IMG/VR virus record: IMGVR_UViG_3300028886_000035
Coordinates: 128,001-192,000 of that record
Length of the DNA: 64,000 nt
Reading direction: 5' to 3' (one strand)
Source of the DNA: a virus
Lineage: Duplodnaviria; Caudoviricetes
The position numbers and the translations under genes are program-made. Every line of letters begins with the position of its first letter. The stretch's first letter is position 1. The notes beneath the pieces are model-generated. The model saw nothing but the letters and a program-made list of their open reading frames with translations. It was not told the DNA's origin and made no database searches. Positions 38,195 to 63,999 of this stretch are shown one piece after another.

Positions 38195-38714
38195 TAGAAA
38201 TATGGTTTTCTATTGTGTGGTTCAATGTTATTTGCAGACTTTTTATTTATCTTGTTGATATTCTAGGATATTATCAAAAAAAAAGTAAAAAATTATATAT
38301 AAAATTTAAGCGGTGGGTTCAACATTAAAACCCCTTTAAAATAGCCTAAAATCTTCATTAAAAATTGCACGGTTTTAGAATATGGTTTATTAAAAAATAC
38401 TAAGAAAAATAATTGTTTTGAAGTGGAAAATTTAATAAACTAATATAAAATTTAAAATAATTTAATTTGACAAGAAAAACCCCGTCCGAATGATAAAACA
38501 TTTTACAGAATTACAAGATATTCTGTCAAAATTGTAAAATGTTTTATCAAAAAGCGGTAAAAATTAAAATATAGATTGATTGACGTTAAAATTTGTTAAG
38601 AATATAAACAAAAAACGGTTAAATTGCCATGAAAACAAAAAAAATTAAAAAATTAGAACATTAAAAACAATAATTTCGTTAATAAAAACAATAAAATTTT
38701 TAATAAAAAAGTTA

Positions 38715-38743
38715 TTGACAAAATCACTAGTACATGATATACT
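38715..38743 (+). promoter_or_regulatory. Sigma70/sigmaA promoter, first of the plus-strand early arm
   Basis: TTGACA-N17-(TGA)TATACT with upstream A-tracts. Similar promoters at 39458, 40106, 40611, 41744, 42840, 43032, 43776, 44224, 44321 and 44849. Confidence 0.9.
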
Positions 38744-38802
38744 ATATACAGAGTTAAGGGAAAGGACAATCGTCCGATAGTTCAAAACAGGAGGAATAAA
38801 AA

Positions 38803-39213
38803 ATGGAAACGATGAACGCACAGGTACAGGTCAATGTAGCTAACGAGCTTGCTATGGAGCTTGACAAAATCCGTAGCGCGAAAAAGGAACTCGCACGTCG
38901 CGAGAAGGAACTTATTTCTAAGTTCTATGAAGCAGGTATTCTGCATGATAACTACGAGCAGGAAGAAGTCACGACGGATAACGTCGTTATCCGCAAAATC
39001 CCTGCCTTGTCGGGCAAACGCTATGACGTAGACAAGGCGCGTGCGCTTGCAGATAGCCTTGCTATCAGTCGCAAAGAGCTTGTCAATCGTGAATGGAAAT
39101 TCACGGTCAACGAGGAAAAGCTAAACGAGCTTGTGAGTGAAGGGAAGATTAGCGAGGAAGTAAAAGATAGCCTTGCAATCAAGGCAAACCGCATTAAAGT
39201 AGACGTAAAATAA
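38803..39213 (+). CDS. Early hypothetical protein
   Basis: GGAGG RBS, own promoter and terminator. Confidence 0.85.
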   Translation: METMNAQVQVNVANELAMELDKIRSAKKELARREKELISKFYEAGILHDNYEQEEVTTDNVVIRKIPALSGKRYDVDKARALADSLAISRKELVNREWKFTVNEEKLNELVSEGKISEEVKDSLAIKANRIKVDVK

Positions 39214-39222
39214 TCCACCAAC

Positions 39223-39258
39223 AGGCAGGGAGAAAAACTCCCTGCCTTTATTTTTTTT
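39223..39258 (+). terminator. Intrinsic terminator
   Basis: AGGCAGGGAG-AAAAA-CTCCCTGCCT followed by a T-run; analogous hairpins close most cassettes. Confidence 0.9.
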
Positions 39259-39551
39259 GTAATGTATTCTAATCAGATTTTAAGGTTGATTGACCATTTG
39301 TAAAATGTTTTATAATTATAAACTGAATTGAAATAAAACATTTTACAGTATATAACCGCCGCCGAGCTATACACTATTTTAGCGAATTGTAAAATGTTTT
39401 ATACATAGCGAGGTTTTTATGTATACATGTATACATAAAAAATCTTTTGATTTATGGTTGACAAGTAAATATAGGTGTGCTACAATATACTTGTAAGGTT
39501 GATAGAGAGACACCTTACAGAAACGGTTTAAGTATATAGGAGGAAACAATC

Positions 39552-39827
39552 ATGGAAAACATGGAACTGAAACAGAACATTGTCAATGCTATTGAAACAC
39601 TTGAAGAAGTTGAAGGGATTTCTTTGGAGGTGTGTGGGTCATGGCTATGGGTTGATGGTGATACCAAGCCTGTAAAGGATTTGATTAAATCCGTAGGTGG
39701 TAGATGGGCAGCAAAGAAGAAAAAATGGTATATCCGTCCTGAAGGGGCTAAATGGTTTCATAGGAAAGAGCAGGACATGGAACGTATTCGTGAAGGATAC
39801 GGAAGTGTCATGGTAAAAGAAGTCTAA
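39552..39827 (+). CDS. Small conserved phage/plasmid early protein (GSWLWVxGDT...GxRWxxKKKxWY, DUF5710-like)
   Basis: Motif recognition; cassette structure. Confidence 0.7.
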   Translation: MENMELKQNIVNAIETLEEVEGISLEVCGSWLWVDGDTKPVKDLIKSVGGRWAAKKKKWYIRPEGAKWFHRKEQDMERIREGYGSVMVKEV

Positions 39828-40182
39828 AGACTTCATACAGGCAGGTGGAAAAATCCACCTGCTTTTATTTTTTGTAATGTATTCTAATCAGATTTTAAGG
39901 TTGATTGACCATTTGTAAAATGTTTTATTGTGAAAATTGATACAACAATAAAACATTTTACAAATATAGTTTATCTGTTTTTGTAAAATGTTTTATGATG
40001 TATAACTAGATGAATTTTTATAATATATTCTAATCTAATTTTAAAATTGATTGACAATGCGACAATTTTTTAATTAATCTTTTAGCAAAAAATATATAAA
40101 ACATATTGACAAAAACAATATAGTAGTCTATAATGTATAGTGTAAGGTCAAGGAACAGAGTAAAGTGATAGGAGGAATTGTC

Positions 40183-40374
40183 ATGAAGTACGTAGTGATT
40201 AAATTTAAAGAGATGCAGAAGATTCTGCGGAACAATGGGTATACCTTAGATAGATATAATGGAGACCATTATATCTATGTGAAAAGAGGTACTAATCATA
40301 TCTCTATTAATAGGGAACTTAATCCTATGGTCGCTAGGCGGTTGATTAAGGAGAACAATCTGATTGTTGAATAA
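40183..40374 (+). CDS. hicA: HicA-like mRNA interferase (no HicB seen)
   Basis: KEMQKILRNNGYTLDRYNGDHYIYVK matches the HicA LxxxG[FY]...GxH pattern; 63 aa after GGAGG. Confidence 0.7.
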   Translation: MKYVVIKFKEMQKILRNNGYTLDRYNGDHYIYVKRGTNHISINRELNPMVARRLIKENNLIVE

Positions 40375-40707
40375 AACAATCACAGAGGGCGAAAGCCCTC
40401 TTTTAATTTATCTTAAAATTTGATTAGACAAATTTTAAGATAAATTAGCTATTTGTAAAATGTTTTATAAAGTTATCAGTTTTCAAAATAAAACATTTTC
40501 CAATTTATTGGATAGGCAATTTTGTAATGTAAAATGTTTTATTACTCACGAATTGTACATAAACTATCTATATAATGAAAAAAAATTTTTTCAAAAAAAT
40601 AAAAAAAGTATTGACAAACATATGCAGGTTTGATATACTTAAACTGTCGAAAGGCGATAGAGAGAAATCGCCTTTAGGGTTTATAAGATTTATGGAGGTA
40701 TACTATT

Positions 40708-41394
40708 ATGTTTACTGTTACTAACATTCTCACGGTCGCTTTTAATCAGATTGCCAAAAATGGCTATATCAAAAAGACAGTCGTTGATGGGGAACGTTGG
40801 GTGCGCCGTTATGGTCGTAACACGCTCGTTCCGAATTATGTAGAGCAGGAGGGAAACACCTGCCGTGCTACGTTGAATGCACTCAAAGCAGGTGATGTAT
40901 CGTCTGATGAGACACTTGCGCAATCGTGCATTAGCACGTATCGTGCGTTTGTGGAGAAGAATCCAAATGATTTTGGGGAGCGTATGCTTTCCCTGCTTGC
41001 CAAAAGCGAACTTGACGAAGCAGATGTAATGCAGGTAGCTTTTGTACCTGTATTCTACTTCAAACAGAAAAAGCACGATGAAGCCATTCGTGCTCGTGAA
41101 GAAGAACGCAAGGAATTCAACAATAGCCTTGCAGGTGGTTTCTTTGCAGAAGTAGGTGAGAAAATTAGTACGTCCGTTACCCTTATCAAACAGGGTGGTT
41201 TTGATGGCGCGTATGGATACACACATATCTATACATTCCTTTCGGAAGATAAACACGTTCTCGTGTGGTTTAGCACGAAAGATATTGATGTAGAAGTCGG
41301 TCAAATTGTCAATATTTGTGGTACAGTCAAAGGTCACAAAGAGTATAATGGTACGAAGCAGACCATTATCACTCGTTGCAAGGTTAGCGAATAA
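40708..41394 (+). CDS. Early protein with C-terminal OB-fold-like domain
   Basis: VLVWFS...VGQIVNICGTVKGHKEYNGTKQTIITRCKV. Confidence 0.7.
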   Translation: MFTVTNILTVAFNQIAKNGYIKKTVVDGERWVRRYGRNTLVPNYVEQEGNTCRATLNALKAGDVSSDETLAQSCISTYRAFVEKNPNDFGERMLSLLAKSELDEADVMQVAFVPVFYFKQKKHDEAIRAREEERKEFNNSLAGGFFAEVGEKISTSVTLIKQGGFDGAYGYTHIYTFLSEDKHVLVWFSTKDIDVEVGQIVNICGTVKGHKEYNGTKQTIITRCKVSE

Positions 41395-41817
41395 CCTTGC
41401 AAGAAGTTAGAGGGTTGAAAAAACCCTCTTTTTTTTTGTGTCTAAAATCGTTTCTAAGCGCGTTTAATTAGCAAGGGTATATAATCATACCTGTTTTGAT
41501 TTTTAGACAGTCAGAAACGATTTTAGCGTGTGTGAGCGTGATATATAGCACGTAGTTTATCCACCATCAGACACGATGGATTGATTCGATAAAAACATTA
41601 TGTATATTTACATAAAACATTTTACAATTTGCATAAAACAGTTTTTTTGTAAAATGTTTTATTTACGATAACTGCTACGGTTTGTAAAATGTTTTATCTA
41701 TTCACACCTGCCAAAAAAATTTTCAATTTTTATAAAAAACCTATTGACAAAAGCCTGTAAAAGAGTATAATAATAAGTGTCAAGGGGATAGAGAAACCCA
41801 AGACAAACGGTTCAAAG

Positions 41818-42549
41818 GTGATTGAAAGGATTGTGATTACAATGGCACTCAAAAGATTTACCTATGAAAATAAGGTTATGACGAAAATGCTCCATGAAGT
41901 TCTTACGGACGCGAAAAACGTCGGAATTGACTTTATCAAATTGGCGGAATTGCCAATTGATTTGAAGGTGTATCGCTCTAGTTGCGGTCGCCGCGCTATC
42001 GCTATGGCATTTAAGACATTCGATAAAGAGTGTCACCGCAAGATGTTTAAAATCGTCTTTTCAGATGAATATGCAAAGAAACTTACAGGCCAGCATGGTA
42101 AAACCGTTCTCATGCACGAATTGGTTCACACATTGCCAAAATGCTTTAATCACGGCATGGAATTTAAGGCATGGGCAAGAAAAATCAATCGTCTCCTGCC
42201 AGGCTACAATGTTGATACTTCCTGCCGGGGGGAGGAATGGGAAGCGGTTTGTGAAATCATGGATGGGAAACGAATTGATGAACCGCGAAAGGTTATCAAA
42301 AATGAGCCTGTAAAACCAATTGAGCGTAAATTCGATAATGGGATGAGAACCTTTATCGGTTCGATTACAATGAAAAATGGTAAGGTTAAAGTCGTTGCGT
42401 TGAAAAACGCGCTTATCAAATGGATTGACGCAAAAGAATTTGAAAAAGCACGTCAAGCGAAAATGATTGCGCCTAGCGCGTTTGAGCAAGCTATGAATAT
42501 GGCAGGTATGAAGAAACGTGCAAAAGCGTTTGCCAATTACAAAGGATAA
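41818..42549 (+). CDS. SprT-like zinc metallopeptidase
   Basis: TVLMHELVH...NHGMEFKAWARKIN; start probably 41842. Confidence 0.75.
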   Translation: MIERIVITMALKRFTYENKVMTKMLHEVLTDAKNVGIDFIKLAELPIDLKVYRSSCGRRAIAMAFKTFDKECHRKMFKIVFSDEYAKKLTGQHGKTVLMHELVHTLPKCFNHGMEFKAWARKINRLLPGYNVDTSCRGEEWEAVCEIMDGKRIDEPRKVIKNEPVKPIERKFDNGMRTFIGSITMKNGKVKVVALKNALIKWIDAKEFEKARQAKMIAPSAFEQAMNMAGMKKRAKAFANYKG

Positions 42550-42913
42550 TGACGAAAGGAAGGGAATAAAATCCCTTCCTTTTTTGTTTTCTATACTATC
42601 AGAAATCATCTCTAGCAGGTGTTTATCTATGATTAGGTATTCTGATACCTGTTAGCATTTTGAAATGACATACAAACAAAATAGGATGTAATAATCATTG
42701 TTACAAAATTGTGCAAGATAAAACATTTTACATTTTATGATTATGGATTGAAAATTTGTAAAATGTTTTATCTTTGATTGCATACGCATATAGTATACAT
42801 TTTTAGAAAAAGTTTTTTCTTGTATACATATAAAAACTATTGACATTGATACTAAAAAGAGTATAATAGTAAGTGTCAAAGGGAAATGGTTCAAACAAAT
42901 GGAGGTTTTAGAA

Positions 42914-42991
42914 ATGGAGTATGCAATCGGTTATATGGCATTTGCTATCGTTGTTTGTAGAACATGGAATGACTTTGTGAATATATTCTAA
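42914..42991 (+). CDS. 25-aa hydrophobic peptide
   Basis: MEYAIGYMAFAIVVCRTWNDFVNIF*, with its own promoter (42840) and GGAGG RBS. Confidence 0.6.
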   Translation: MEYAIGYMAFAIVVCRTWNDFVNIF

Positions 42992-43157
42992 AATCCGTTC
43001 ACAAAAAAATCACCAAGCGATAAAAAAGTGCTTGACATTCTTCTCAAAGCGAGTATAATATAAAGTGTAAGGAACAAGAGAAAATGGATGATGCAATTGT
43101 AATTCTCAACAACTATATAAGAACAAAAATTAGAAGAAAACTAAGGAAGGAAAAATT

Positions 43158-43559
43158 ATGTTTGAGCAAAGAAAAAATATTCGAGATTTTGTAAATCGAC
43201 TTATAGAAGGTTTCCCAGAAAGCAAAAATCCTAAATGGAGATATATTTTATTCTTTAAAGATTCTATTAATGGCTTTGCATTTTCAGCACCTTATCTTGA
43301 CAAAAGAGAATGTCATGGACGAGTTATTCTTAACATCCCTCAAATATCGAATCTTTGTAAAGGAGACGGGAAAAGATTTGCTAGTTTTTTATTAATGAAC
43401 TTGTACCATGAAACACAACACACATATCAATTTGATTATATGAAAGAAAACAAATTAGATATAAGAAATTGTTTACTAAAACATCAAGAAAAATTAGAAA
43501 AACAAGCTATTGAAGCTATGAATAATCTAAAATATGATTTTGATTTTTCATATCTTTAA
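43158..43559 (+). CDS. HExxH-motif protein (putative zincin)
   Basis: NLYHETQHTYQ...EKQA. Confidence 0.6.
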   Translation: MFEQRKNIRDFVNRLIEGFPESKNPKWRYILFFKDSINGFAFSAPYLDKRECHGRVILNIPQISNLCKGDGKRFASFLLMNLYHETQHTYQFDYMKENKLDIRNCLLKHQEKLEKQAIEAMNNLKYDFDFSYL

Positions 43560-43834
43560 TTTGAGGGAAAATGTTTACTGTAATAAGTACGGTTCTGCCA
43601 GAACAGATACATTAGGGGATGAGAAATCATCCCCTAATTTTATTGTCTAATTTTTATATAAGGTAATTTTAATCTAGGTTGATTGACTTTAATTTATTTT
43701 TAATTATTGAAATGTTGTAAAATGTTTTATCTTAATTCATCAATAAAAATTTTTCAAAAAAATATACAAAACATGTTGACAAATAATTTACATAGTGCTA
43801 TACTATATTTGTAAGGTTGATAGAGATAAAATAA

Positions 43835-44083
43835 ATGGAGGTAATCATTATGGTACTGACAGAAAAAGATGTATGGGATATTTTAGAACATGGTCGAATT
43901 CGTAATATGCCCGAAAAGACGTTTATTGGAGGTCTTACTCAACCCGATGGACAATCGTTTCCGATTGATGTATTAGACACAGGATGGGCAGGTTGCCGTT
44001 TTCATTTAGAAACTGAATTATTGAAAGCGTTAGGTGGTATTGAATTTTGGTTAGTTATTGATAAGGGAAATTGGGAGGAGTGA
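43835..44083 (+). CDS. Early hypothetical protein
   Basis: Start probably MVLTE after GGAGG; promoter and terminator. Confidence 0.75.
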   Translation: MEVIIMVLTEKDVWDILEHGRIRNMPEKTFIGGLTQPDGQSFPIDVLDTGWAGCRFHLETELLKALGGIEFWLVIDKGNWEE

Positions 44084-44397
44084 TTTAATCAGATGGGGAG
44101 TACTCCCCATCTTTTTTAATATAAAATATTAAAACATTTTACAATTTTTGTTCGGTATAATTTTTGTAAAATGTTTTATGGCTTGACTATATGATTTTGT
44201 ATATAAGATACATAAAAAAAGTATTGACAATGATAGCGCAGTATGTTATTATAAAGACAGTTAAGCGGTCACAATCATTATTAAACACAAAAAATTTCAA
44301 AAAAAATAATAAAAAAATTCTTGACAAAATAACATATATATGATATACTAAAGTCAAGAAATGAGAGATATGGTTCACAAGAAAGGAAGTAATTACA

Positions 44398-44691
44398 ATG
44401 AAATTCGCAGACGTTAAAGTTTACAACATGACCTCCCACAACACGGAACGTGAAGTTCCGAATCAGTTTAAAATCCATGCCAATGGTGGTGTATATTTTC
44501 AGAGTTACAATACGGTTATTGCTTTTGTAAAGGATAATCACGTATCAATCATTCGTGGTGGTCTTGACTACTCTACGACTACAAACAAATGGTTGTATCA
44601 GTTCTTAGAGGAAGAAGCAGGGTTATGGCAATTGAATAAACGCAAGGTTTCCAAAATGATGGAAAGCGGTGAGATTGAAACTGTGGAGTAA
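44398..44691 (+). CDS. Conserved phage early protein (FQSYxTxIA...DYSxTT family)
   Basis: Motif recognition; cassette structure. Confidence 0.8.
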   Translation: MKFADVKVYNMTSHNTEREVPNQFKIHANGGVYFQSYNTVIAFVKDNHVSIIRGGLDYSTTTNKWLYQFLEEEAGLWQLNKRKVSKMMESGEIETVE

Positions 44692-44921
44692 AATTCACAT
44701 AGGGAGGGCGGAAGCCCTCTTTTTATTTGCCTTAAATTTTTTCTAATTAAATTTTAAGGTTGATTGACTATTGTAATAAATTGATTTTTGTAAAATGTTT
44801 TATTCACTATACCTACTGAAAAATTTTTCAAAAAATATAAAAAAGTTCTTGACATACATAATATTATATGGTATACTGTTTACAGAGATAAGGAAATAGA
44901 CAAATTCAGGAGGTAATTGAA

Positions 44922-45179
44922 ATGTACTACTACGTTAAAGAAGTTGCGTCTCGTGATGGGAAATTCAGAGGAAAAGAGGATATTAAAATCCGTAAATTCA
45001 AAACTTACGCAAGAGCGCAGATTGCATTTAACAAGAGCGCAAATGCTTTGCGTGAAATGATGGATAAAGCCCTTGCGAATGGCGCAGATTTTACGAAAGA
45101 TGATAATAATGTAAGTCTGTTGATGTATTACAGTAACCGTTCGTATAGAAGGTTTGGCGTTACACTTTATAAGCATTAA
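44922..45179 (+). CDS. Early hypothetical basic protein; last gene of the plus arm
   Basis: AGGAGG RBS; terminator at 45180-45220. Confidence 0.8.
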   Translation: MYYYVKEVASRDGKFRGKEDIKIRKFKTYARAQIAFNKSANALREMMDKALANGADFTKDDNNVSLLMYYSNRSYRRFGVTLYKH

Positions 45180-45363
45180 AAAATACCTGCTAGAAACATA
45201 ATCTAGCAGGTATTTTTTTTGTAATGTATTCTAATAAAGTTTTAATCTAGGTTGATTGACTATTGTAAAATGTTTTATCAAATATCAAAATGTGAGCATA
45301 AAACATTTTACAGAAACACAAAAGTAAAAAAATACGTATGAATCATTCATACGTATTTGATAT

Positions 45364-45792: not shown

Positions 45793-45809
45793 TTTATAAA
45801 ACCTCCATA

Positions 45810-46235: not shown

Positions 46236-46348
46236 TTTAATCTTTCCTTTCTGCTATTTATATATAAAGTATACCATAAAAATGGATATTTGTCAATATA
46301 AATTATATAATAAAAGGCACGATGTTTTTACGCATCGTGCTTTTTTTG

Positions 46349-46537: not shown

Positions 46538-46769
46538 AATCATGTCCTTTCTTTTGATGGGTTGTTTTTCAATTTCTGTATTTATTATAGCGCACAATTC
46601 GCAATTTGTCAATAGGTTTTTTATATTTTTTGATAAATTTAACCGAATAAAATGTGATAAATATTCGTATAAAACATTTTACAAAAATTGTTTGTATGTG
46701 GATTGTAAAATGTTTTATTTTAATATGCAAATAAAAAGGACGGATATTCAATATCCGTCCCAAAGAGGA

Positions 46770-47245: not shown

Positions 47246-48011
47246 AGTACATACCTCCTGTGAACTATCTCTTGTTCCCTTCGACACTTATATAATAGCA
47301 TACTACGGAAAGTTTGTCAACACTTTTTTTATAAAAAATGCAAAAAAAATTTGCATCAACGTATGAAATTTGTCAGACATTTTACATCTAAAACCTTCAA
47401 AAAACATTCCTTTCTACTAAATTGAATGTTTTCTCTACCAATATATTATCAAATAATGTGTACCAATATTTTTTGTATCAAAAATGTCTGAAAATTGTTT
47501 ATGCTATAAAAAGCCTTGCGATTATCATATCGCAAGGCTTCTCTTTATTCTAAATAAATATATATATATGAATTACTTAGCCCATTGGAATCATGTCCCT
47601 TCTATATGGATTGAAACCTAGCTTTTCTTGAACCATCGTGGTTAACATTTCTAAATAACAATAATAATATATATGTTCTCACTCGCTAGAGTTTATTCAG
47701 CTTTTTCTTCATTCTGCTCACTTCCTTTCCCCTTGGATTGATTATATTGTATCATAACTGAACTACTTTGTCAACAGTTTTTTAAATTTTTTTCTTTAAG
47801 GTATCAACATCATAAACAGTTCCGTTCAATTGTTTCATTTCCTTATCTCTGATTATATGATACCACACACAAAACAATTTGTCAACACTTTTTTATAAAA
47901 AATGCAATTTTTTTGACCATAAAACATTTTACAATTTATAAAAACAGAATTTTTGTAAAATGTTTTATTTTGTTTCAATAACAAAAAAAAGAGAGTTTCC
48001 CCTCTTTTTCA

Positions 48012-48347: not shown

Positions 48348-48700
48348 TATGTATCAGCCCTTTCAATTTGCTTAACCTTATGTATTAAATATAACACAGA
48401 ATATACATTTTGTCAACATTTTTTTATTGACGAAATAAAAATTTTTGTATTTATAGCACTACGTTCAAAACATCATACGCATAAAACACATGGTCTAAAT
48501 CACTTTATTTTTGTCTCTAAGGTGATTTAATTATAAAATAGGTATAGCTATATGCACTGATAAATAAAATCGCTTATACGCGAAATAGGAAGCAACTAAA
48601 GTAATTACACAACTTTCACAAAATTCATTTTGTAAAATGTTTTATATATGAATAATGATAAAGAGGTGAGATTTTTATTCTCACCTCTTTATCATTTTCT

Positions 48701-49198: not shown

Positions 49199-49462
49199 TT
49201 AGTAAACCTTTTGTTTCTCTCTATGGTTATATAGTACCATATCTGATTTCGTTTGTCAAGAAGTTTTTTATATTTTTTTGATTTTGATTTTTGTACTTTT
49301 TTCTCTTGACACTTATATAGTATCATATATGTATAACTATGTCAAGATATTTTTTATATTTTTTTCTATAATAAAACATTTTACAAAAATTATAATATAT
49401 AAAATTGTAAAATGTTTTATCTCTATATATAGAAAAAAGCAGGGATTTCCCTGCTTTTTTTC

Positions 49463-49780: not shown

Positions 49781-49977
49781 TTTGAAAACCTCCTATTAAC
49801 GAACCATTTCCTTAACTCTGATATTAGTATAGCATGTATTGATATATTTGTCAATAACTTTTTTATATTTTTTTTTGATAATAAAACATTTTACAAAAAA
49901 CACATAAAACGCAATAATGTAAAATGTTTTATGATAATATATCAAAAAAAGAGGAATTTAATTATCCCTCCTGTTGG

Positions 49978-50526: not shown

Positions 50527-50725
50527 TTTTTGAAACCTCCTAAATTTGAACCATTTGTTTCTCTATGCTTATATACTACCACAAATTGATAATTTTGTCA
50601 ACAGTTTTTTTATAAGCAAATTTCGTGCTTAAAACATTTTACAAAAAAACGTATTGACGAATAAATGTAAAATGTTTTATTTCGATATATCAAAAAGAGG
50701 AAGGGTAAAATCTCCCTCTTTTCTT

Positions 50726-51124: not shown

Positions 51125-51288
51125 GATGTATTTCCTCCTGTATTTCAAACCGTGTTTCTCTCTATGGTTATATATTACCATAGAACGGATATTTTGTCAA
51201 TAGGTTTTTTATAAAAAATATCTTTTTATAAAACATTTTACAAATCCATACAAATAAAAAAAGCAGATACATAAGCATTTGCCACAAA

Positions 51289-51450: not shown

Positions 51451-51660
51451 CTTAAATCTACCTCCAAAGTGTTTAACCTTTTGTTTTTCTCTATGGTTAT
51501 ATATTATCACATCTTACACGTATTGTCAAGTATTTTTTTATACTTTTGTTGATAATAAAACATTTTACAAATTTGTGTAAATTGATTTTTGTAAAATGTT
51601 TTATGTTTAGTATATCAAAAAGAGGTGGAATATTCCACCTCTTCGTTAGAAATATTGTAA

Positions 51661-53295: not shown

Positions 53296-53603
53296 TTTGA
53301 ACAACTCCCTTCTTGTTTCAATATAAGTATAACACACATACATACATAAAGTCAAGTATTTTTTTATTGCAATTAATTTTATAAAACATTTTACAATATC
53401 TATGTATATCAATCTGTAAAATGTTTTATCTATTTATTTGTAATAAAAATAATTACATTGTAGAATTGCCTACAAGTGTTATTAAAACACTACTACATAT
53501 AAATACTCGCATACTAGTATAAAACGCGCTACAGGCTAATTCTAGTGTATCAGAATAACAAAATAGCAGGGAATTTATTCCCTGCTATCATTTGAATTGC
53601 CTA

Positions 53604-54296: not shown

Positions 54297-54783
54297 GATG
54301 AATTACCTCCATTGTTTGAGAACCATTCGATTAGGTTTCTCTCTTTCCCTAACCTTTGTCTATATTATAACGTTTATCGGATGCTTTGTCAATAGTTTTT
54401 GTATAAAAATATAAAAATTTTTTGTTCGTCTGTTCGTCTGAAAGTATAAAACATTTTACAATTTTGGATTAAAACATTTTATTTGTAAAATGTTTTATAT
54501 CGTGAAAATAAAAAAAAGAGTAGTATTACTACTCTTATGCTATTAATCTTCTTTTTCACAAATTTGTAAATAATCGGGAGAAATATTTTCTGTATATTCA
54601 AAGGAATAGGGTTTTTCACCTTCTTCCAAAATAATGTTTTTATCGTTATGAAGATGGGATTGATTCAATTTAGATATATCAATTTTGAAAACTACGATTT
54701 TATCGTTTTCAATTGGTACAGAAATTGTCAGACATTTTATTTTATGGGACAAAAAAAGAGAGGGTTTTTCCCTCTCCATTGAA

Positions 54784-55857: not shown

Positions 55858-55872
55858 TTTGATTCCATCCTA

Positions 55873-56281: not shown

Positions 56282-56539
56282 TTAATTTACGTATGTAATA
56301 TAGCGTGTATATGCGTCTTTTTTGACTTTACCAATAAGTTTGAAGATAGAAGCATCTTCAATTCTTTCAAATGTACAATCATCAATCTTATTTAATTTCA
56401 TCTTTTCTGCAAAAACTTTTTTAATCAGTTCCTTTTTTTGTTCTGAACATTTTACCCATTTAGCATTGTTTTCATCTTCAACAATGTTAAACACCCCATT
56501 GATTTTAGGAAAGTGCATTTTGTTCTTCATGTTAATCAT
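56282..56539 (-). CDS. Hypothetical protein
   Basis: AGGAGG RBS. Confidence 0.65.
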   Translation of the reverse strand: MINMKNKMHFPKINGVFNIVEDENNAKWVKCSEQKKELIKKVFAEKMKLNKIDDCTFERIEDASIFKLIGKVKKDAYTRYITYVN

Positions 56540-56772
56540 TATGATTACCTCCTATAAAACCCAATTGCTCTCTTGTGAAGTTTCTTTTGTTTTACTTCTC
56601 TTGTATTGTACACCTAATCGATAAAAATTTCAATTTATATACAATTATGTATTTATGATAAATCGGTTAAACACCTTATAAAACATTTTACAATTATTCG
56701 CTTGTATAAAATTGTGTAAAATGTTTTATATTAAAACAAAAAAAACAGGGAGGAAAATCCTCCCTGTTTACG

Positions 56773-56925
56773 TCAACTGTTTTCCTTAATCATTTCCTCC
56801 ACATCTTTCATAAGGCTTTCGTACTCGCTCTTTGAGCGAGCGTTCATAGCTCCCACATAAATAGTGTAAATATCCTCCGCGACCTGTGCGTTTTTAATGT
56901 TTTTAAGCGCTTCCATAATATCCAT
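56773..56925 (-). CDS. 50-aa protein below the ORF-track cutoff
   Basis: MDIMEALKNIKNAQVAEDIYTIYVGAMNARSKSEYESLMKDVEEMIKENS*; GGAGG RBS and terminator. Confidence 0.7.
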   Translation of the reverse strand: MDIMEALKNIKNAQVAEDIYTIYVGAMNARSKSEYESLMKDVEEMIKENS

Positions 56926-56986
56926 GATTTATACCTCCATTTTATAGATGAACAACATTTTATAGTTATCATCATATATTGTTCCA

Positions 56987-57700
56987 TCAAATTTCAAACT
57001 TAATTTTGCTATTTACGCAAAGTTTTCTCTCTGGAAAATCATGTATAACGGTATACTTCTTATCAGTAAACCGAAATATATGATTCCTAAACAAAGATAC
57101 CATATCAATTCTACCAAGAATTTTATAATTCTTAGTATCATTAAGTACCCATCTTTCCCCAAACTTTCTAAAATCAGATGCGTTTGGGGGGAGATAGCTC
57201 TTTTCCATTACCTTCAATAACTGTACATTCTTTATTAAATAAAATCTGAAATATATTTCTTCATCATCTTCTCTGATAAATTCAATGCTCCAACAATACG
57301 GATTAAACAATCTAATGATAAATTTGATTTCAGAAATAGATATGCTTTTGTACCTAAAGATTATATGATTAACAGAGCTAGCATCATACATCAACCTTAC
57401 AGTACTTTCTGGAAACTTTGTTTCAAAGACATTAAATGCATCTTTCATCTTCTTCTCTATAGTTATATTCTTTTCATAATGATATGTATCATATAGCCAA
57501 CTATAAAGAGCGGTATATGTTTTATTATATACTTTACAATTACCAATAATTGGATGTATAGCTAACATGCATTTTATTGGATTATCCGATACGCATGTAC
57601 GTGGTATATCTCCTTCTTCATTAATCAGACAAGGTGGTACATGAGTTTTTAATACCTCGCCTTCATTGAATTCTATTTTTGCTATATGATACATATCCAT
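56987..57700 (-). CDS. Hypothetical protein with a possible ADP-ribosyltransferase-like motif set
   Basis: MYH...PRTCVS...CMLAI...D...GERW; the fold call is tentative. Confidence 0.5.
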   Translation of the reverse strand: MDMYHIAKIEFNEGEVLKTHVPPCLINEEGDIPRTCVSDNPIKCMLAIHPIIGNCKVYNKTYTALYSWLYDTYHYEKNITIEKKMKDAFNVFETKFPESTVRLMYDASSVNHIIFRYKSISISEIKFIIRLFNPYCWSIEFIREDDEEIYFRFYLIKNVQLLKVMEKSYLPPNASDFRKFGERWVLNDTKNYKILGRIDMVSLFRNHIFRFTDKKYTVIHDFPERKLCVNSKIKFEI

Positions 57701-57882
57701 ATTATTACCACCTTAATAAAGAAGCGTTCCTTAAAACCTGTACGCCGACAGTAAGACGTGAGCTAACTTGTCTTACTTGGCACACTATGCGTCCGCCTAA
57801 GAACGTATCTCTTAACGTTTCCGTTCTTCTCACTATATATAGCATACATCAACCGAACGTATGTGTCAAGTATCTTTTATAA

Positions 57883-58113
57883 TTAATCTTGTGTTTCTAC
57901 TACATCAAAATGCAACCATTTATCCCAAGCCATATCCATATAATCATTCTGTTTAATACATTCATCTACGGATTTTTCTTCAAAATCTGCTCCATAATCT
58001 TTCATGTATTTTTTGATAAAACTTTCAAATACTTTTCGCGCAGTATATTCGTCACGATAATAAATATTTGTTGCATCACCATTATCACATTTTGTAATTA
58101 CATATAAAGTCAT
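57883..58113 (-). CDS. Hypothetical protein
   Basis: AGGAGG RBS. Confidence 0.75.
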   Translation of the reverse strand: MTLYVITKCDNGDATNIYYRDEYTARKVFESFIKKYMKDYGADFEEKSVDECIKQNDYMDMAWDKWLHFDVVETQD

Positions 58114-58283
58114 AATTATATCCTCCTAGTTTATCAATAGAACATTTTACAATTTTTCTTTTTATTCCTACATACCATATAGTATATTTTTTTTTGTAAA
58201 ATGTCTTACACAAAAAGAAAATTTAGTAGTAAAAATAGATATTACTAAAACAACAATAGGAAATATAAAAAATCCTAACATAA

Positions 58284-59240
58284 TTATTCTTTCATATCTA
58301 CTATATACGATTTATTCACCTGTCCATTTTTGACATTACCTACAATAATATCATCAAACCAAAAAACGCCTTTCAATTTTCCAAACAAACCCTTGCCTTT
58401 TGTATAGTCTGCAAAATGACCTCTACGAATATGATAAGCTCTTTTATCCCCTGTATGATTTATTTCACCAATATAATTTTTTCTCGCTTGCATTGGTTTA
58501 ATATGAACAATATTATGTGTTACTTTTGAGCCTTTTTTCTTATTGAATTTATGACCTTTTTTTGTAATATCCACTGATACATTTTTGCAATTTAAAATAG
58601 AAACAATGAAATAAGTTAAATGATTTAAAAAATCATATAATGCTCCAATAGTTTCACAATCTTTACGTAAATTTTCTTTTCTACAAACTTTTGCAATATC
58701 AGGGTCAGTAAAGTTATAATACCCTTCCATGCGTTTACCATTGTTATTTACAAAGAATTGAATACCACCAAAACTATTCCATTTATGTTTATCTGTATAA
58801 AAATTGAAATTCGTTTTGACTAAATATTTTGCTTTATAAATATCACCATGAACAAATATTCTTTGTGTCTTACACATACTTACCAATTGATTTAACATGT
58901 CATCTGCAAGAAACGGCATTGTATCAACGGTATTATCAAATTTACAAATATCATTAATTTTGATTTCAGAAAATGAAATAAATTTATCTACACTTTTTTG
59001 CGTATCTGCAATTACATTATCATTAACAGGATAATAATCCATGTCAATCTGTATCATATTAATATGTACTTCTTTCATCCATATTCCAAAATTTGTTCCG
59101 TTCAAACTATCTCTATCAAAAACCATGCTATAGTTTTTGAAAATAGGGAACATAGATACATTTGTATTCCGCCCATATTGTTCTGTATTGTCAAGGTAAA
59201 TTTTAACCACATCATTTACATTAATAATTTGTCTTTCCAT
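58284..59240 (-). CDS. Phage protein with C-terminal HxRRGH motif
   Basis: KRAYHIRRGHF...LFGKLKGVFW. Confidence 0.8.
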   Translation of the reverse strand: MERQIINVNDVVKIYLDNTEQYGRNTNVSMFPIFKNYSMVFDRDSLNGTNFGIWMKEVHINMIQIDMDYYPVNDNVIADTQKSVDKFISFSEIKINDICKFDNTVDTMPFLADDMLNQLVSMCKTQRIFVHGDIYKAKYLVKTNFNFYTDKHKWNSFGGIQFFVNNNGKRMEGYYNFTDPDIAKVCRKENLRKDCETIGALYDFLNHLTYFIVSILNCKNVSVDITKKGHKFNKKKGSKVTHNIVHIKPMQARKNYIGEINHTGDKRAYHIRRGHFADYTKGKGLFGKLKGVFWFDDIIVGNVKNGQVNKSYIVDMKE

Positions 59241-59415
59241 TTTAATTTACCTCCATCTTATCACCTTATTTGCATTATACCATATACAAAAAATCTTGTC
59301 AATGAAATTTTGTATTTGTAAAATGTTTTATATTATATACAAAAAAATCAACGATAAAACATTTTACAAAAAATTTTGTTTAAAAATTAAAAAGAGGGAA
59401 AAACCCTCTTTTTAA

Positions 59416-59913
59416 TTACTTGATAATATATGAATATTTAGTATCACGTTTCCAAAGATGGAATGTGAGAATGTATTCTGTCTCATATTCTTCCTCGTAT
59501 TCCTCGCCTTCTTCATCTTCTTCCGTTTCTGTATACGTTTCAGTTTCCGTATACAGTTCTTCTTGTTCCAAACCCTCGCCCCAACCATCAGAATACTGTC
59601 CAATTGTGTATTCCATAATTTGTTTTGCTTTATTTTCGTCTACGTCACTATTGAAAATATAAGTCATTTTCGTAACGCCATTATTATCCATTTCAAAATC
59701 AACAGATTTTGCGCCTGTCTGCTCTTTGAAAATGTTGAATAGTTCCTGTTTATCATTTGCAACAATGTCCTGCAATTTTTCCCACGCTTCAGGATAAAAT
59801 TCCATCACGTCTTTTACAGGAATTTCAGTTTCTGCACTATTGTAACCATTGTCATAATCAGTCATAAAAAAACGACCTTTTCCATAAACAATAATCGAAT
59901 TACCCATTTTCAA
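59416..59913 (-). CDS. Acidic protein (GQxSDGWGEG motif, poly-E tract)
   Basis: ETEEDEEGEEYEEEYETE; AGGAGG RBS. Confidence 0.8.
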   Translation of the reverse strand: MKMGNSIIVYGKGRFFMTDYDNGYNSAETEIPVKDVMEFYPEAWEKLQDIVANDKQELFNIFKEQTGAKSVDFEMDNNGVTKMTYIFNSDVDENKAKQIMEYTIGQYSDGWGEGLEQEELYTETETYTETEEDEEGEEYEEEYETEYILTFHLWKRDTKYSYIIK

Positions 59914-60067
59914 TTACCTCCTGTAATAAACCTGTTGTTCCTCTCTATGGTTATATATTACCATAGATTATTTATTTTGTCAAGAACTTTTTATAAAAAG
60001 TATAAAAATAAAACATTTTACAAATATTATTATACTAATCACAATTTGTAAAATGTTTTATGAACAA

Positions 60068-60367
60068 TTATGAATTTTTCTTTGCACTTATCATACCCTG
60101 TATATACAAATTAGTAAACGTTTTATTTGTGTTGTAAATATTCAAGTAATGGTTATATATGCCATACATCTGATAATGCGCTAGAGCAAGCAACAGACCG
60201 TAATAAACGCCGTCATACCACCTAGCCTTATCCTTTAGGCTAGTCATTTTTTCTATATCATTGTTACGCTCATACACTTCATATTGACCACGAATATAAC
60301 TTAATTGTTCCCATGCCTTATCTAGCTGATTAGTTATATTCTTCAATTCATCTTTCGTTGTTTCCAT
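60068..60367 (-). CDS. Hypothetical protein
   Basis: Start METTK after AGGTG. Confidence 0.65.
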   Translation of the reverse strand: METTKDELKNITNQLDKAWEQLSYIRGQYEVYERNNDIEKMTSLKDKARWYDGVYYGLLLALAHYQMYGIYNHYLNIYNTNKTFTNLYIQGMISAKKNS

Positions 60368-60447
60368 TTTAATATCACCTACCATATTTTTTGTATCAAT
60401 ATTATAAATAATGCTAGTGATTATTTTTATAATCACTAGCATTATTG

Positions 60448-60714
60448 TTAAATGACTTCTGCCAAACAATATTCAATCATATTGTTTTCCTGCGGATAAA
60501 CACCTTCAACATCGTCTGTCCACGAAGAATTATCTTCATCAAAAATCCAATGACCTAACAGATTTTTTGGAATTTCTGTAATTAGTAATGGATAATCAAG
60601 GAATACACTATCGACGATATATTTACCATCTTTCTCAATGGCGAACTTGCAATCAACCCTTCTTTCCGTGCCACCATTAACGCGACGATACATAGCAATA
60701 TAAGTACCTTTCAT
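60448..60714 (-). CDS. Hypothetical protein
   Basis: AGGAGG RBS and promoter. Confidence 0.75.
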   Translation of the reverse strand: MKGTYIAMYRRVNGGTERRVDCKFAIEKDGKYIVDSVFLDYPLLITEIPKNLLGHWIFDEDNSSWTDDVEGVYPQENNMIEYCLAEVI

Positions 60715-60763
60715 TTCAAATACCTCCTATTGATTACCTTTAACTTTTCTCTATGGTTATATA

Positions 60764-60865
60764 TTACCATACATTATGTATTTTGTCAACATCTTTTTTA
60801 TAAATCTCAATAAAAATTTTTGCACTAATAACAAGACCAACAATAAATCCAATCATAATTTCCAT
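60764..60865 (-). CDS. 33-aa membrane peptide
   Basis: MEIMIGFIVGLVISAKIFIEIYKKDVDKIHNVW*, with its own promoter and RBS. Confidence 0.5.
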   Translation of the reverse strand: MEIMIGFIVGLVISAKIFIEIYKKDVDKIHNVW

Positions 60866-61228
60866 TTTATACACACCTTCCTTTCATCACCTATATCATA
60901 CCATATAATTACATGTTTGCCAAGATATTTTTTATCAAATAAAACATTTTACAATTTGCCCTACCCATTTTTATTTGTAAAATGTTTTATTTGATAAAGG
61001 CATTATAAAAACCGTGCGGATAGGGAATATCCTGCACGGTTCTCTTTTTATAATTTTATAATAAATCTAAACTTAATATATAATTTCTATTTACTACATC
61101 TTACTCATTCCTTTCAAAATTGTTATTCACGCTAACACACTAGAAGTTTATCGGCATTTTATATCAAACAAATTTATTATAATTTATATTAACCTGTCCG
61201 TGATGAACGACGAATAGATAGCATATCC

Positions 61229-61711
61229 TTATGAAAGTTTATTATACTTTTCCCAAATTTGTTTAGCCAATTTTACAGAATATCGACTATACTGAGTCTT
61301 TAGTTCATCTACCATCTCACCGTTTTCAAAAACCATTTTGCCACAATTATAACCCATATTTTCATCAGCATAATCTACTTCAATAGTAAGATTCGGAAAC
61401 TTTTTAGTAAGAGCTTCGTATATTTCCTTTGGAGCACTCCAAGCTGTCAAAAAATAGAGTTCGTTCTCATTCCCTGTTTTTACATGTTCATAAGCATTCC
61501 ACTTAGTTCCCCAGTTTTGAATACGCCAATCATACCAATCAGTATTATTTTTATATTCTGGTTCTGGAATAACCTTATTAAAATCAATAGTTCCATAACC
61601 TGTTGCCTCATTCTTGTATTGTGCTTTTTCTTTGGCAACACTTTCCATAAAGTTCTTTACTTCTTCTGAATCACCTTTGACTTTCACAATGTTACAAATA
61701 TGATTTGGCAT
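61229..61711 (-). CDS. DUF1281/YubB-like ferredoxin-fold protein
   Basis: MPNH..N...IDFNKVIPEP...DWYDWRIQNWGTKWNA...FxTAWSAP...YADE. Confidence 0.8.
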   Translation of the reverse strand: MPNHICNIVKVKGDSEEVKNFMESVAKEKAQYKNEATGYGTIDFNKVIPEPEYKNNTDWYDWRIQNWGTKWNAYEHVKTGNENELYFLTAWSAPKEIYEALTKKFPNLTIEVDYADENMGYNCGKMVFENGEMVDELKTQYSRYSVKLAKQIWEKYNKLS

Positions 61712-61898
61712 AATATATCAATCCCTTTCTTGTTTCTTTAACTTTATCTTATGTGCTTATTGTACATCATAAAATAGATAAATGTTAAAAAACGTGTGCG
61801 TTATTCTTAAAACATTGGTATCACTTACTTCCTTTCCTTTACTGTATTTACAGTATATCATATTCGTGTTGATTTGTCAACACTTTTTTTGAACTTTT

Positions 61899-62111
61899 TT
61901 ACCAACCCATAGCCTTGCAAATGTTGTCAATAGTATAATCCCAATCAATTATACATGCAAGACCGACAAACAAGCCTGCTACTGTATCCTTAACGAATTG
62001 GTCACGCTCGTGCTTTTTGCGTGTACGCTCAACAAAAAGCTCCCAACGTTTATCACGGATAGCTTGACGATAAATAGCAATCTGTTCGTCATTCATTTCT
62101 TCAACCCTCAT
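61899..62111 (-). CDS. Small protein, paralog of 55873
   Basis: Start MRVEE after GGAGG. Confidence 0.75.
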   Translation of the reverse strand: MRVEEMNDEQIAIYRQAIRDKRWELFVERTRKKHERDQFVKDTVAGLFVGLACIIDWDYTIDNICKAMGW

Positions 62112-62373
62112 TTTAATTACCTCCAATTTGTAGAACCTGTTGTTTTCCTTTCGATGGTTATATATTATCATACTACAATCTATTTGTCAATACTTTTTTT
62201 ATAAAAAATAAAAAATTTTTTCAAACCTATATGATGAATAAAACATTTTACAATTTAGATAGATACAAAAAAATCCTGTATGGATTTTACACCATACAGG
62301 ATTTATATTAAGACACCCGACCAGAACGGCAACCTGTCCAAATATTTATTGTAAAGTGCCATAGTATTTTCTC

Positions 62374-63138
62374 TCAATCCCACAAATCAAGAAAATACTT
62401 TCCGAAAAGCTCTTTTCCACGATTGTATTTCTTTTCGTACTCTTTAGCATCATATTTATCAGAAAATTCATGGCAATGAGTAATCTCGTGAAACGTGAAA
62501 ATCATATCATCAAGATATTTCTCCCACAGATTGCAAGGAACGCCATATCTTTTTGCGTTCTTAAAAGCAATGAGACCTTCATAAATATACCATGCTTGGT
62601 CATCATCAAAAGCATATACTCTATTTAGATTTTTGTCAATTCTTTCTAGTTGACAAATACGTGCTTTATCAGTTATAACATAACTATAGCTCACCCATGT
62701 ACTAGAAATAAATTCTATAAGATTAGCATATAGTCTAATCCCACTATTAATATCATACCTATAGTTCTTTTCGGCTTCTTTTGCATTATATGGAATTAAG
62801 CAATCATTATAATTCTCGTTCTTCCACCAAATGTACCAAGGGGAATTAGGAAAATTAAGAGATGCTTCTTCAAAAGAAAAGTATATCTTTTTTAGAACAT
62901 CAAGCAAGTCTTGTTTATTTTTATCTTGACTTCCCATAGCTTTATTAAAGTTCTTCAATACTTCTTGTAACTCATCTTCCTTAATATATTTTTCAATCCA
63001 TAAGATGTAAGAACGAAGGGCAACTTTAATGTAATTTGAGAGGTCAACAAAAAGGTTATAGGGACGGCGCTTATTATACCACAAACTATGACGTTTATTG
63101 ATAATTTTCTTGTTCATCTTTAGACCTCCTGTCTGCAA
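62374..63138 (-). CDS. Hypothetical protein
   Basis: Ends GKELFGKYFLDLWD; start probably MNKKI. Confidence 0.8.
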   Translation of the reverse strand: MQTGGLKMNKKIINKRHSLWYNKRRPYNLFVDLSNYIKVALRSYILWIEKYIKEDELQEVLKNFNKAMGSQDKNKQDLLDVLKKIYFSFEEASLNFPNSPWYIWWKNENYNDCLIPYNAKEAEKNYRYDINSGIRLYANLIEFISSTWVSYSYVITDKARICQLERIDKNLNRVYAFDDDQAWYIYEGLIAFKNAKRYGVPCNLWEKYLDDMIFTFHEITHCHEFSDKYDAKEYEKKYNRGKELFGKYFLDLWD

Positions 63139-63303
63139 TTAGCTTATTTTTGTTACCTTATACACATCTTTAATGCATTTATTGTCAAACCAAAATTCAG
63201 TATCTACTAAAAGAGTAAGTGTCAGTAAAAAGCTATTTTCTTTAGCTCTCACTACTTTATTGATTGATTTAAGTGTTACATAATCACCTACATTAACTTT
63301 CAT
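63139..63303 (-). pseudogene. Decayed tandem paralog of 63316..63591
   Basis: MKVNVGDYVTLKSINKVVES*...WFDNKCIKDVYKVTKIS*. Confidence 0.7.
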
Positions 63304-63315
63304 TGTAATACCTCC

Positions 63316-63591
63316 TTATTTATTTACTTTTGTTAATCTATATACGTCTTTAATACACATTTCGTCAAAGCCCCACATTTTTCCTTTTATGTCAACCCAA
63401 ACACCATCTTGATTTGCTTCTAATACTTTATACTTATTAGAAGTCCCCATTGCGTCTAACATATTAGTTGAGAAATAATCTGTATCCGTAGTTACATTTC
63501 CATCATTCGCCACATCCCAAAACTTATAGAGAGGTTTTACCTCCTCGATGGATTTCAACGTGACATAATCTCCATTCCTGATGTTCATCAT
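63316..63591 (-). CDS. Hypothetical (SH3-like) protein
   Basis: GDYVTLKS...; promoter and AGGAGG RBS. Confidence 0.75.
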   Translation of the reverse strand: MMNIRNGDYVTLKSIEEVKPLYKFWDVANDGNVTTDTDYFSTNMLDAMGTSNKYKVLEANQDGVWVDIKGKMWGFDEMCIKDVYRLTKVNK

Positions 63592-63720
63592 TATATCCTC
63601 CTGTCTATTGGTCTCTGAACCTTAACTCTGTATATAGTATAGCATAGGTAGAACAAGAAGTCAATAGTAAATCAAAAAATTTTTTATAAACCATGATACA
63701 GAAACGTTTCACAAAACATT

Positions 63721-63999
63721 TTACAATCCAAAAAACAATCTTCTTGCTTTGTTATGACAAGTAATAAAACTATTTTTATACCAATTTGGAATATACAAAT
63801 AGAATATTTCAAATAAATCTATGGGTGAAAAATTTATCCTAGAACTTGTAAATCTAGGAAATATATCTTGACAAAAACTATTTATATCAAAATTACGATT
63901 ACCATATTTTTTATACCAAAACCAATCTCTGTCTTTACGTTCTCTATTTTGTTTTCTTCTAAATATACGAATTGTATAAAAACTATCCATGGATTGCAA
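63721..63999 (-). CDS. G-hydrophobic family protein, 5' end truncated by window edge
   Basis: Ends KARRLFFGL*. Confidence 0.55.
   Translation of the reverse strand: MQSMDSFYTIRIFRRKQNRERKDRDWFWYKKYGNRNFDINSFCQDIFPRFTSSRINFSPIDLFEIFYLYIPNWYKNSFITCHNKARRLFFGL

Follow-up and report, generated by a model that had tools for sequence, protein, structure and literature searches.

A long run of small-gene cassettes in an uncultured jumbo phage carries a 15-bp element that we interpret, with a probability of roughly 55%, as an array-specific, helically phased operator for a putative DNA-binding protein, placed inside an array whose cassettes are shuffled in the manner of T4-type promoter-early stem-loop (PeSL) cassettes. 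The element was analyzed in a stretch of 64,000 nucleotides (the window; bases 128001-192000 of virus record IMGVR_UViG_3300028886_000035, here G000), and coordinates are those of the window unless given as genome positions. The operator reading is favored because selection acts on the exact 15-mer and not on pairing of its copies, because the element accompanies one class of promoters, and because it keeps a fixed orientation and a helical register relative to them. An initial annotation of the window, made from the letters alone, had offered several explanations, and of these the evidence speaks most strongly for an operator for a phage factor.

The core, ATAAAACATTTTACA, is sharply bounded at both edges, with an information content of 1.3-2.6 bits at each of positions 1-15, 0.65 bits at position 16 and approximately zero in flanks and spacers. 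Counted as the 16-mer ATAAAACATTTTACAA with up to two mismatches, it has 54 matches in the window (1.2 expected, and at most 4 in shuffled sequence). Fifty-two of these, at 27 loci, fall within 38493-63726, the span originally given for the array, while the other two lie further left at 33056 and 33122. A genome-wide motif scan, proposed at the same time, found 77 copies at 42 loci, all between genome positions 161,056 and 207,061 (window 33-79 kb); the array does not end at 63726 but stretches about 15 kb past the window end, to genome 207061. Within the array 68 cores are perfect, eight have one change and one has two, after which matches drop to chance level. There is no tail of decaying copies, and the remaining 233 kb of the genome contain no perfect core. 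Copies occur as singles (12 of the 42 loci), as inverted pairs facing inward (+-) or outward (-+) with a span of 49-55 bp, as one direct pair, and as four triplets at 39.3-41.7 kb. The centers of neighboring copies are 33-39 bp apart, alike for inward, outward and same-direction neighbors. The coordinates, pairs, triplets and variable center described in the initial annotation all hold, as does the inner palindrome TAAAA-CA-TTTTA. Its argument that the variable center speaks against simple copying or a miniature inverted-repeat transposable element is likewise borne out: copying of a whole unit with terminal inverted repeats was not seen, given that spacers and flanks carry no information and that arms also occur singly or tripled.

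Relatives were obtained by scanning metagenome contigs for the paired pattern (three long and four short contigs), with two more from a protein look-up. They are variants of the same phage lineage with 65-99% DNA identity, and the same core is present in each of them. Five or six variants preserve it closely: within aligned blocks it was 99.6, 95.6, and 97.5% identical, compared with 95.5, 86.2, and 77.3% for other intergenic DNA, although alignment seeding on repeats may raise the core figures somewhat. Among 54 distinct inward pairs, 38 of 39 changed positions were altered on one arm only. Because the core is more conserved than its neighbors and changes in the arms are uncompensated, the exact 15-mer of each copy is under purifying selection and arm pairing is not, as would be expected if a protein recognizes the site and not if it forms an RNA hairpin or cruciform. 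For the most divergent relative (60% amino-acid identity across the flanking gene), the contig ends exactly inside an element. In IMG/VR the 16-mer gave just single chance matches, the paired pattern occurred only in the phage's own record, and two genes in or beside the array had no protein relatives; the flanking 279-aa protein had four homologues among 5.8 billion proteins. Across 185,579 representative genomes the paired pattern gave one unrelated chance hairpin, in a Flavobacteriaceae metagenome-assembled genome, and nothing else, and the motif is absent from the searchable literature.

The element is tied to one class of promoters. Placement was analyzed with a simple gene call, a promoter pattern and a terminator search, which confirmed the earlier observation that copies lie nearly always between one cassette's terminator and the next cassette's promoter, here a terminator-like hairpin and a TTGACA-17-TATAAT/TATACT promoter, often with an extended -10 TG. 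The genome has 97 strong sigma-A-like intergenic promoters, with 51 in the array (41.7 kb, genome 165.5-207.2 kb) and 46 elsewhere. An element lies within 135 bp upstream of 34 of the 51 array promoters, as opposed to 0 of the 46 others, and therefore marks one class of host-type promoters rather than early promoters generally. The lack of elements noted earlier at promoters between 10 and 33 kb also stands, with none at the 10 strong promoters of genome 138-165.5 kb.

Geometry was assessed in G000 and its relatives by matching each copy that has no further copy downstream to the best promoter within 130 bp. These promoter-proximal copies read 5'-TGTAAAATGTTTTAT-3' toward the promoter in 82 of 96 cases (85%). 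The gap from element to -35 box is discontinuous, with clusters at approximately 15, 25, 35.5, 45.5, 55, and 68 bp, which places the element center near -58, -68, -78, -88, -98, and -111, directly upstream of sequences resembling the proximal and distal UP subsites. After merging of similar linkers into 58 clusters, the Rayleigh vector length R was 0.58-0.63 at a period of 10-11 bp (nominal p ~1e-9), compared with 0.38 for the 99.9th percentile of the best R from random linker lengths. Phasing was much weaker for the distal copy of a pair (R = 0.28) and for the few copies in the opposite orientation (R = 0.31, n = 14). Such phasing is the pattern that would be expected for a factor needing one helix face relative to promoter-bound RNA polymerase, for which class I activator positions and phi29 p4 are established cases.

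We propose that one sequence-specific protein, probably phage-encoded, binds the 15-bp site as an operator or upstream control site, and that this putative binder would coordinate the host-RNA-polymerase (sigma-A type) promoters of the 46-kb array and no other promoters of the genome. From one helix face, the bound protein would touch promoter-bound RNA polymerase or shape the upstream DNA, and a second, inverted copy some 35 bp further up may stabilize binding or build a higher-order complex. We lean slightly toward coordinated shut-off or timing of the array genes over activation, by analogy with phi29 p4/p6 at early promoters, because the promoters are already near consensus and have an extended -10 and UP-like tracts.

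Several observations weigh against the operator reading. Linkers of one length class share UP-like A-tract modules, such that the 58 linkers are not fully independent; counting just the six length classes, we estimate p at roughly 0.01-0.03, and the phasing could arise in part from insertion of whole-turn A-tract modules. The spacing of 33-39 bp within pairs is not a whole number of helical turns. A role linked to the terminator is also conceivable: where a terminator could be detected (28 spacers), the distance from T-tract to first copy is 10-14 nt in 14 spacers and no more than 16 nt in 19. Moreover, the outward pair at 45263-45313 lies between two convergent cassettes without a promoter. 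Searches for the binding protein have been largely negative as well. Pfam screens covered 222 proteins via alignments and gave the best 25 families per listing, behind which weak helix-turn-helix (HTH) matches may be hidden; for the 78 array proteins, there was no clear HTH or ribbon-helix-helix (RHH) family among those best 25. Family searches of the genome matched neither phi29 p4 (Phi-29_GP4, PF05464, E<=10) nor the HU/TF1 and RHH_1 families. The initial annotation had seen no regulator in the window. The whole genome yields two sub-threshold HTH candidates, namely a 119-aa protein at genome 256182-256538, with a weak C-terminal HTH-like stretch and beside a NusG-like gene, and a 94-aa HTH_31-like protein at genome 262591-262872.

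Directly downstream of the 119-aa protein is a protein with a NusG N-terminal domain (166 aa, E = 5e-11), and the two, at genome 255540-256538 on the minus strand beyond the window, are a possible transcription-elongation or regulator module. Two other roles for the element were considered and rejected. RNA-guided targeting via the phage's TnpB-like gene does not fit, as the sequences that follow three omega-RNA-like scaffolds are unlike the element, nor does a promoter for the phage sigma factor, as the distance to any -10-like sequence varies.

The main rival to an operator is a boundary or roadblock resembling a stoperator, in which a protein bound just past the terminator would stall read-through polymerase and insulate the cassettes, with inverted pairs stopping traffic from either side and any promoter effect being secondary. 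We retain it because of the T-tract spacing and the promoterless outward pair described above, although we consider it unlikely. It is also consistent with the resemblance to the 13-bp stoperators of mycobacteriophage L5, which share the asymmetry, near-invariance and many intergenic copies of the element (PMC9283540), and with the fact that the one pair that is clearly degenerate (58137-58209) is operon-internal, at a place where read-through would be wanted. However, the copy next to the terminator shows no orientation preference (11 one way, 8 the other), while stoperators function in one orientation only (PMC9283540), and both orientation and helical phasing go with the promoter rather than with the terminator. 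Compact, related spacers may by themselves account for the short terminator gap. Furthermore, RNA-run contigs cross some elements (50629-50690 and 56695 onward). The degenerate pair is crossed as well, and read-through thus exists; here and below, transcription data are assembled contigs from public runs, in which uncovered parts count as no evidence. The two functions could conceivably be combined in a two-sided boundary module served by one phage protein, the terminator-side copy acting as a roadblock about one polymerase footprint past the U-tract, to enforce termination, and the promoter-facing copy, kept at whole helical turns from the -35 box, setting the activity of the next promoter. 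This we offer tentatively, as an idea with the odds well against it; if true, some 40 insulators would make a 46-kb, freely shuffled accessory (possibly anti-defence) library switchable as one unit.

Compared with G000, at least five related contigs have other cassettes or another cassette order, as a result of indels, replacements, a few translocations and one inversion, and 51 of 58 homology-block ends (>=80% identity) are intergenic. Some junctions fall exactly in elements: direct copies at genome 202161 and 202650 flank the loss of one gene, with an overlap of 20 bp, contig B has an additional cassette bordered by copies of the element at genome 191711, and further cases were found at A2:1100-1111 and L160:12940. 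These findings uphold the suggestion in the initial annotation that cassettes are shuffled, in this case between related phages, and they are what a second rival would draw on, namely that the elements mainly supply identity or a recombinase target for PeSL- or integron-like excision, insertion and reordering of cassettes. We regard this as quite improbable. Breakpoints lie equally in the shared -10/leader, where the cleanest junctions are located (contigs D and C, genome 179507/180400; A2 7652/7679), and further crossovers were seen at the UP/-35 edge and in a conserved linker. Block ends within 10 bp of an element number 10 of 58 (17%) versus 13.7% of random intergenic positions, and are thus not enriched. 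A 1.9-kb segment (genome 194176-196084, equivalent to window 66176-68084 and so beyond its end) is inverted in G000 relative to two related contigs, yet its ends are not at elements: the nearest element is about 30 bp away from one end, and the other end coincides with the start of a gene. In the 98%-complete genome the tyrosine recombinase family PF00589 had no match at E<=1, no IntI was found, and the serine resolvase family PF00239 was absent, which extends to the genome the earlier remark that no recombinase is visible in the window. Moreover, homologous exchange leaves the sharply bounded invariant 15-mer, its orientation and its helical phasing unexplained. The attC-like, integron-like reading initially envisaged is not supported as a site-specific system, and we reject it as such, in view of the same searches and block ends, of cassettes having their own promoters and of conservation of sequence rather than structure. 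Crossovers are spread over shared promoter/leader sequence and elements, and no recombinase is detectable; shuffling is homology-driven as in T4-type PeSLs. Related phages exchange cassettes by homologous recombination at short stretches of identity, and the elements provide some of these stretches as a by-product. In the assembled contigs of public runs, joints such as 47970>53415 and 49365/51604 have sides of 20-50 letters that are the element itself, and they were taken as misplaced repeats and not as evidence of circles or inversions.

A third rival supposes a site for a host protein (a global regulator or nucleoid protein of the low-GC anaerobic host, or an unusually strong far-upstream contact of the RNA polymerase alpha subunit) that the phage has copied before its accessory genes. 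In its favor are the host-type promoters, which have UP-like A-tracts, and the A/T-richness of the element and its phase with these promoters; in addition, the searches gave no convincing phage-encoded binder. Even so, this origin is doubtful, given that the 46 other strong host-type promoters of the same phage are without the element, that the paired motif is in no representative bacterial genome save the one chance hairpin, that the motif is not in the searchable literature, and that alpha-subunit contacts need no invariant 15-mer with fixed C and ACA positions. Finally, although a perfect inverted pair folds into a 16-bp A/U-rich stem of -13.9 kcal/mol, it is very improbable that the pair works as a DNA cruciform or, at the RNA level, as a hairpin for processing or back-up termination, since the uncompensated arm changes largely refute a structural signal, 12 of the 42 loci are single copies, outward and direct pairs are spaced like inward ones, and Rfam gave no family match over the window.

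Cassettes of the array (Table 1) are built, in order, from the element or elements, UP-like A-tracts, a sigma-A-type promoter, a shared leader, a ribosome-binding site, one to four small accessory genes and a terminator, and nearly all have their own near-consensus promoter and terminator. A separate scan of 45.2-64 kb found 27 terminator-like sites (5.4 expected) and a ladder of near-consensus minus-strand promoters. The genes are short and mostly without known function; those with Pfam matches (SprT-like, HSP20, dCMP deaminase, HPr, GNAT, HicA, formate/nitrite transporter, amidase and several domains of unknown function, DUFs) look like accessory cargo. A stand-alone HicA-like gene (40183-40374, Pfam E = 6.6e-07) makes up its own cassette, with no HicB partner nearby. 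RNA contigs from three metatranscriptome runs (three studies) cover single cassettes. Contig ends at 46268/46246, 49293, 53305/53294, and 61824 each fall 5-30 bp inside a predicted promoter, while a DNA-run contig crosses these points, a weak hint that cassettes are separate transcripts begun at the predicted promoters.

Table 1. Element loci in the window and their position relative to promoters and terminators.
Feature	Position	Strand	Remarks
Two outlying copies, 5 kb left of array	33056-33137	-	33056-33071 perfect; 33122-33137 one mismatch, inside 3' end of an open reading frame
Inward pair, left array edge	38493-38547		Plus-strand promoters at 38580 and 38715 downstream
Triplet (-+-)	39298-39402		Proximal copy 55 bp ahead of -35 box at 39458
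Triplet (-+-)	39913-39996		Upstream of promoter at 40106, HicA-like cassette
Triplet (-+-)	40453-40542		Proximal copy 68 bp ahead of -35 box at 40611
Triplet (+--)	41612-41697		Has the only direct pair (35 bp apart); 46 bp ahead of -35 box at 41744, SprT-like cassette
Inward pair	42718-42771		68 bp ahead of -35 box at 42840
Single, promoter-facing	43715-43730	-	45 bp ahead of -35 box at 43776
Inward pair	44129-44179		Begins 10 nt past terminator T-tract; 44 bp ahead of -35 box at 44224
Single, promoter-facing	44788-44803	-	45 bp ahead of -35 box at 44849
Outward pair	45263-45313		Between two convergent cassettes; no nearby promoter
Inward pair	46669-46718		56 bp upstream of minus-strand -35 box at 46612
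Inward pair	47919-47968		33 bp upstream of minus-strand -35 box at 47885
Single	48630-48645	-	11 nt past terminator
Inward pair	49371-49420		10 nt past terminator 49432-49461; 25 bp upstream of -35 box at 49345
Inward pair	49881-49932		26 bp upstream of -35 box at 49854
Inward pair	50629-50680		27 bp upstream of -35 box at 50601; one RNA-run contig spans the pair, indicating some read-through
Single, promoter-facing	51228-51243	+	27 bp upstream of -35 box at 51200
Inward pair	51555-51604		25 bp upstream of -35 box at 51529
Inward pair	53381-53429		25 bp upstream of -35 box at 53355
Inward pair	54446-54498		53 bp upstream of -35 box at 54392
Inward pair	56678-56729		44 bp upstream of -35 box at 56633
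Only clearly degenerate pair	58137-58209		1 + 2 mismatches, 57 bp apart; operon-internal; RNA-run contig spans the pair
Outward pair	59316-59369		13-14 bp upstream of -35 box at 59302
Inward pair	60008-60061		24 bp upstream of -35 box at 59983
Inward pair	60939-60990		15 bp upstream of -35 box at 60923
Single, promoter-facing	62238-62253	+	47 bp upstream of -35 box at 62190
Single, promoter-facing, one mismatch	63711-63726	+	46 bp upstream of -35 box at 63664; array goes on beyond the window
In-window part of the 46-kb hyperplastic array	38493-64000		Self-contained cassettes

Other features of the array transcripts and spacers were also observed. The leaders of array mRNAs have a common 5' stem-loop with the loop (G/C)ATAGAGA, the stems of which vary between cassettes yet remain complementary. 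It lies at 39467-39510, 40620-40665, and 41752-41790 on the plus strand and, for example, below the promoters at 49259, 51529, 52458, 59983, and 60789 on the minus strand, and the motif follows 17 of 51 array promoters versus 4 of 46 elsewhere. An RNA-binding or NusG-type factor may bind there, or the stem-loop may stabilize the 5' end. Plus-strand spacers have a second conserved linker motif (...TTCTAATC-N-GATTTTAAGGTTGATTGAC...) ahead of the first copy of the element (39260-39297, 39876-39912, 44760-44787, and 45235-45262), which is present in relatives too, including L159. On the minus strand, a transcript unit of approximately 240 nt (47500-47740) runs from a promoter at 47746-47774 to a terminator at 47511-47540, and its sole open reading frame has 8 codons. 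Contigs of one RNA run are 40-100x deeper over this unit than over neighboring cassettes, its fold z-score is -3.7, and it is without an Rfam match, making it a candidate for an abundant phage small RNA. To the left of the array, gene-free stretches at 33947-34233 and 37480-37570 contain tandem repeats (55 bp x2.2, 18 bp x3.8, and 25 bp x3.6 at 96% identity) that are close to a turn in GC skew and may be iterons or an origin.

The 281,186-bp (281-kb) record is rated 98% complete. The genome is very AT-rich (21-35% G+C), and in a distant blastn search 7.9 kb of the array had no nucleotide match among 50,697 phage records. It codes for tail-fibre-like proteins, an NAD-dependent ligase, a sigma factor, a NusG-like protein and an anaerobic ribonucleotide reductase split by homing endonucleases. 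Public runs containing DNA of the window are labelled as bovine gut or manure metagenomes, and the habitat is taken from these run labels alone. Given its AT-richness, gene content, run labels and lack of a match among phage records, the source is an uncultured jumbo phage of a low-GC anaerobe. Beyond the window, at genome 240-281 kb, Pfam matches to a TET-associated glycosyltransferase, microbial PARG, NADAR, a zeta-toxin-like kinase, a poly(A) polymerase-like protein and DUF2201/VWA hint at functions in hypermodification of DNA and in reversal of ADP-ribosylation (anti-defence).

Jumbo phages hold large, fast-changing sets of small accessory genes, the control of which is mostly unknown. Here, one invariant 15-bp tag sets about 35 array promoters apart from 46 other host-type promoters of the same phage, and the helical register provides a concrete, testable geometry. 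Identifying the binder would give low-GC anaerobes a new, defined pair of phage regulator and operator and would show how a plug-and-play cassette library is kept under common control during reshuffling. The element is also a specific sequence marker of this phage lineage in rumen metagenomes.

Parts of the arrangement resemble known systems. In integrons, single-gene cassettes are likewise separated by imperfect inverted repeats with variable centers, and content varies among relatives. However, the array is without IntI or another site-specific recombinase, its cassettes have their own promoters and terminators instead of being promoterless and served by a common promoter, its breakpoints are not confined to the repeat, and attC sites are conserved in folded structure while the 15-mer is conserved in sequence. 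In cluster A mycobacteriophages, dozens of asymmetric, near-identical intergenic stoperators of 13-15 bp are bound by a single repressor (L5 gp71), with an orientation that tracks transcription (PMC9283540). The element resembles these in copy number, asymmetry, fidelity and location in short intergenic spaces (PMC9283540). In contrast, L5-type sites are single, in one orientation within transcribed DNA and genome-wide in temperate phages, where they stop elongation, whereas the element is confined to one region, occurs mostly as inverted pairs about 35 bp apart, with both orientations at most loci, and lies between terminator and promoter, upstream of and in register with the latter; there is also no sign of lysogeny here, as no integrase is found in the genome. 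In phi29, p4 binds inverted A-tract repeats near sigma-A promoters and turns early promoters off, recognizing one G per half-site together with A-tract shape and forming a higher-order complex on tandem sites (PMC1904284; PMC3100819). The element likewise consists of inverted repeats with A-tracts next to sigma-A promoters, and every copy contains AAAATGTT, the half-site that p4 prefers (PMC1904284; PMC3100819). The phi29 arrangement of inverted 8-bp half-sites (AACTTTTT / AAAATGTT) 15 bp apart was not found, however, and the half-site G-to-G distance is 26 bp in phi29 but 36-42 bp in element pairs (PMC1904284). Furthermore, phi29 has four sites at one locus, whereas the element has about 77 copies spread over 42 loci and an asymmetric conserved block of 15 bp, and no p4-family protein is detectable. 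The element therefore lacks defining features of both p4 sites and stoperators with respect to protein family, half-site spacing, its occurrence in both orientations and its position upstream of promoters.

In architecture and shuffling the array corresponds to the PeSL cassettes that T4-type phages carry (Arbiol et al., 2010, PMC2839356; Comeau et al., 2014, PMC4122927), in which homologous exchange occurs anywhere in a shared promoter-terminator motif (PMC2839356; PMC4122927). In both, a hyperplastic region holds small genes, mostly of unknown function, each framed by a strong sigma-70-type promoter with AT-rich upstream sequence and a stem-loop terminator, and close relatives vary by insertion, deletion and replacement of cassettes, with crossovers in shared regulatory sequence and no dedicated recombinase. 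The array shows this combination in its density of strong promoters and terminator-like sites, its shared leader and UP-like motifs, and the indels and replacements by which close relatives differ, the crossovers of which fall within shared motifs. Unlike a PeSL, which is a promoter and stem-loop only, it adds an invariant 15-mer, single, paired or tripled and phased to the promoter, and it belongs to an unrelated low-GC bovine-gut jumbo phage. The general kind of arrangement is already known; what is new here is that an invariant 15-mer forms a component of its own, that it is paired and restricted to one class of promoters, and that it keeps a helical register.

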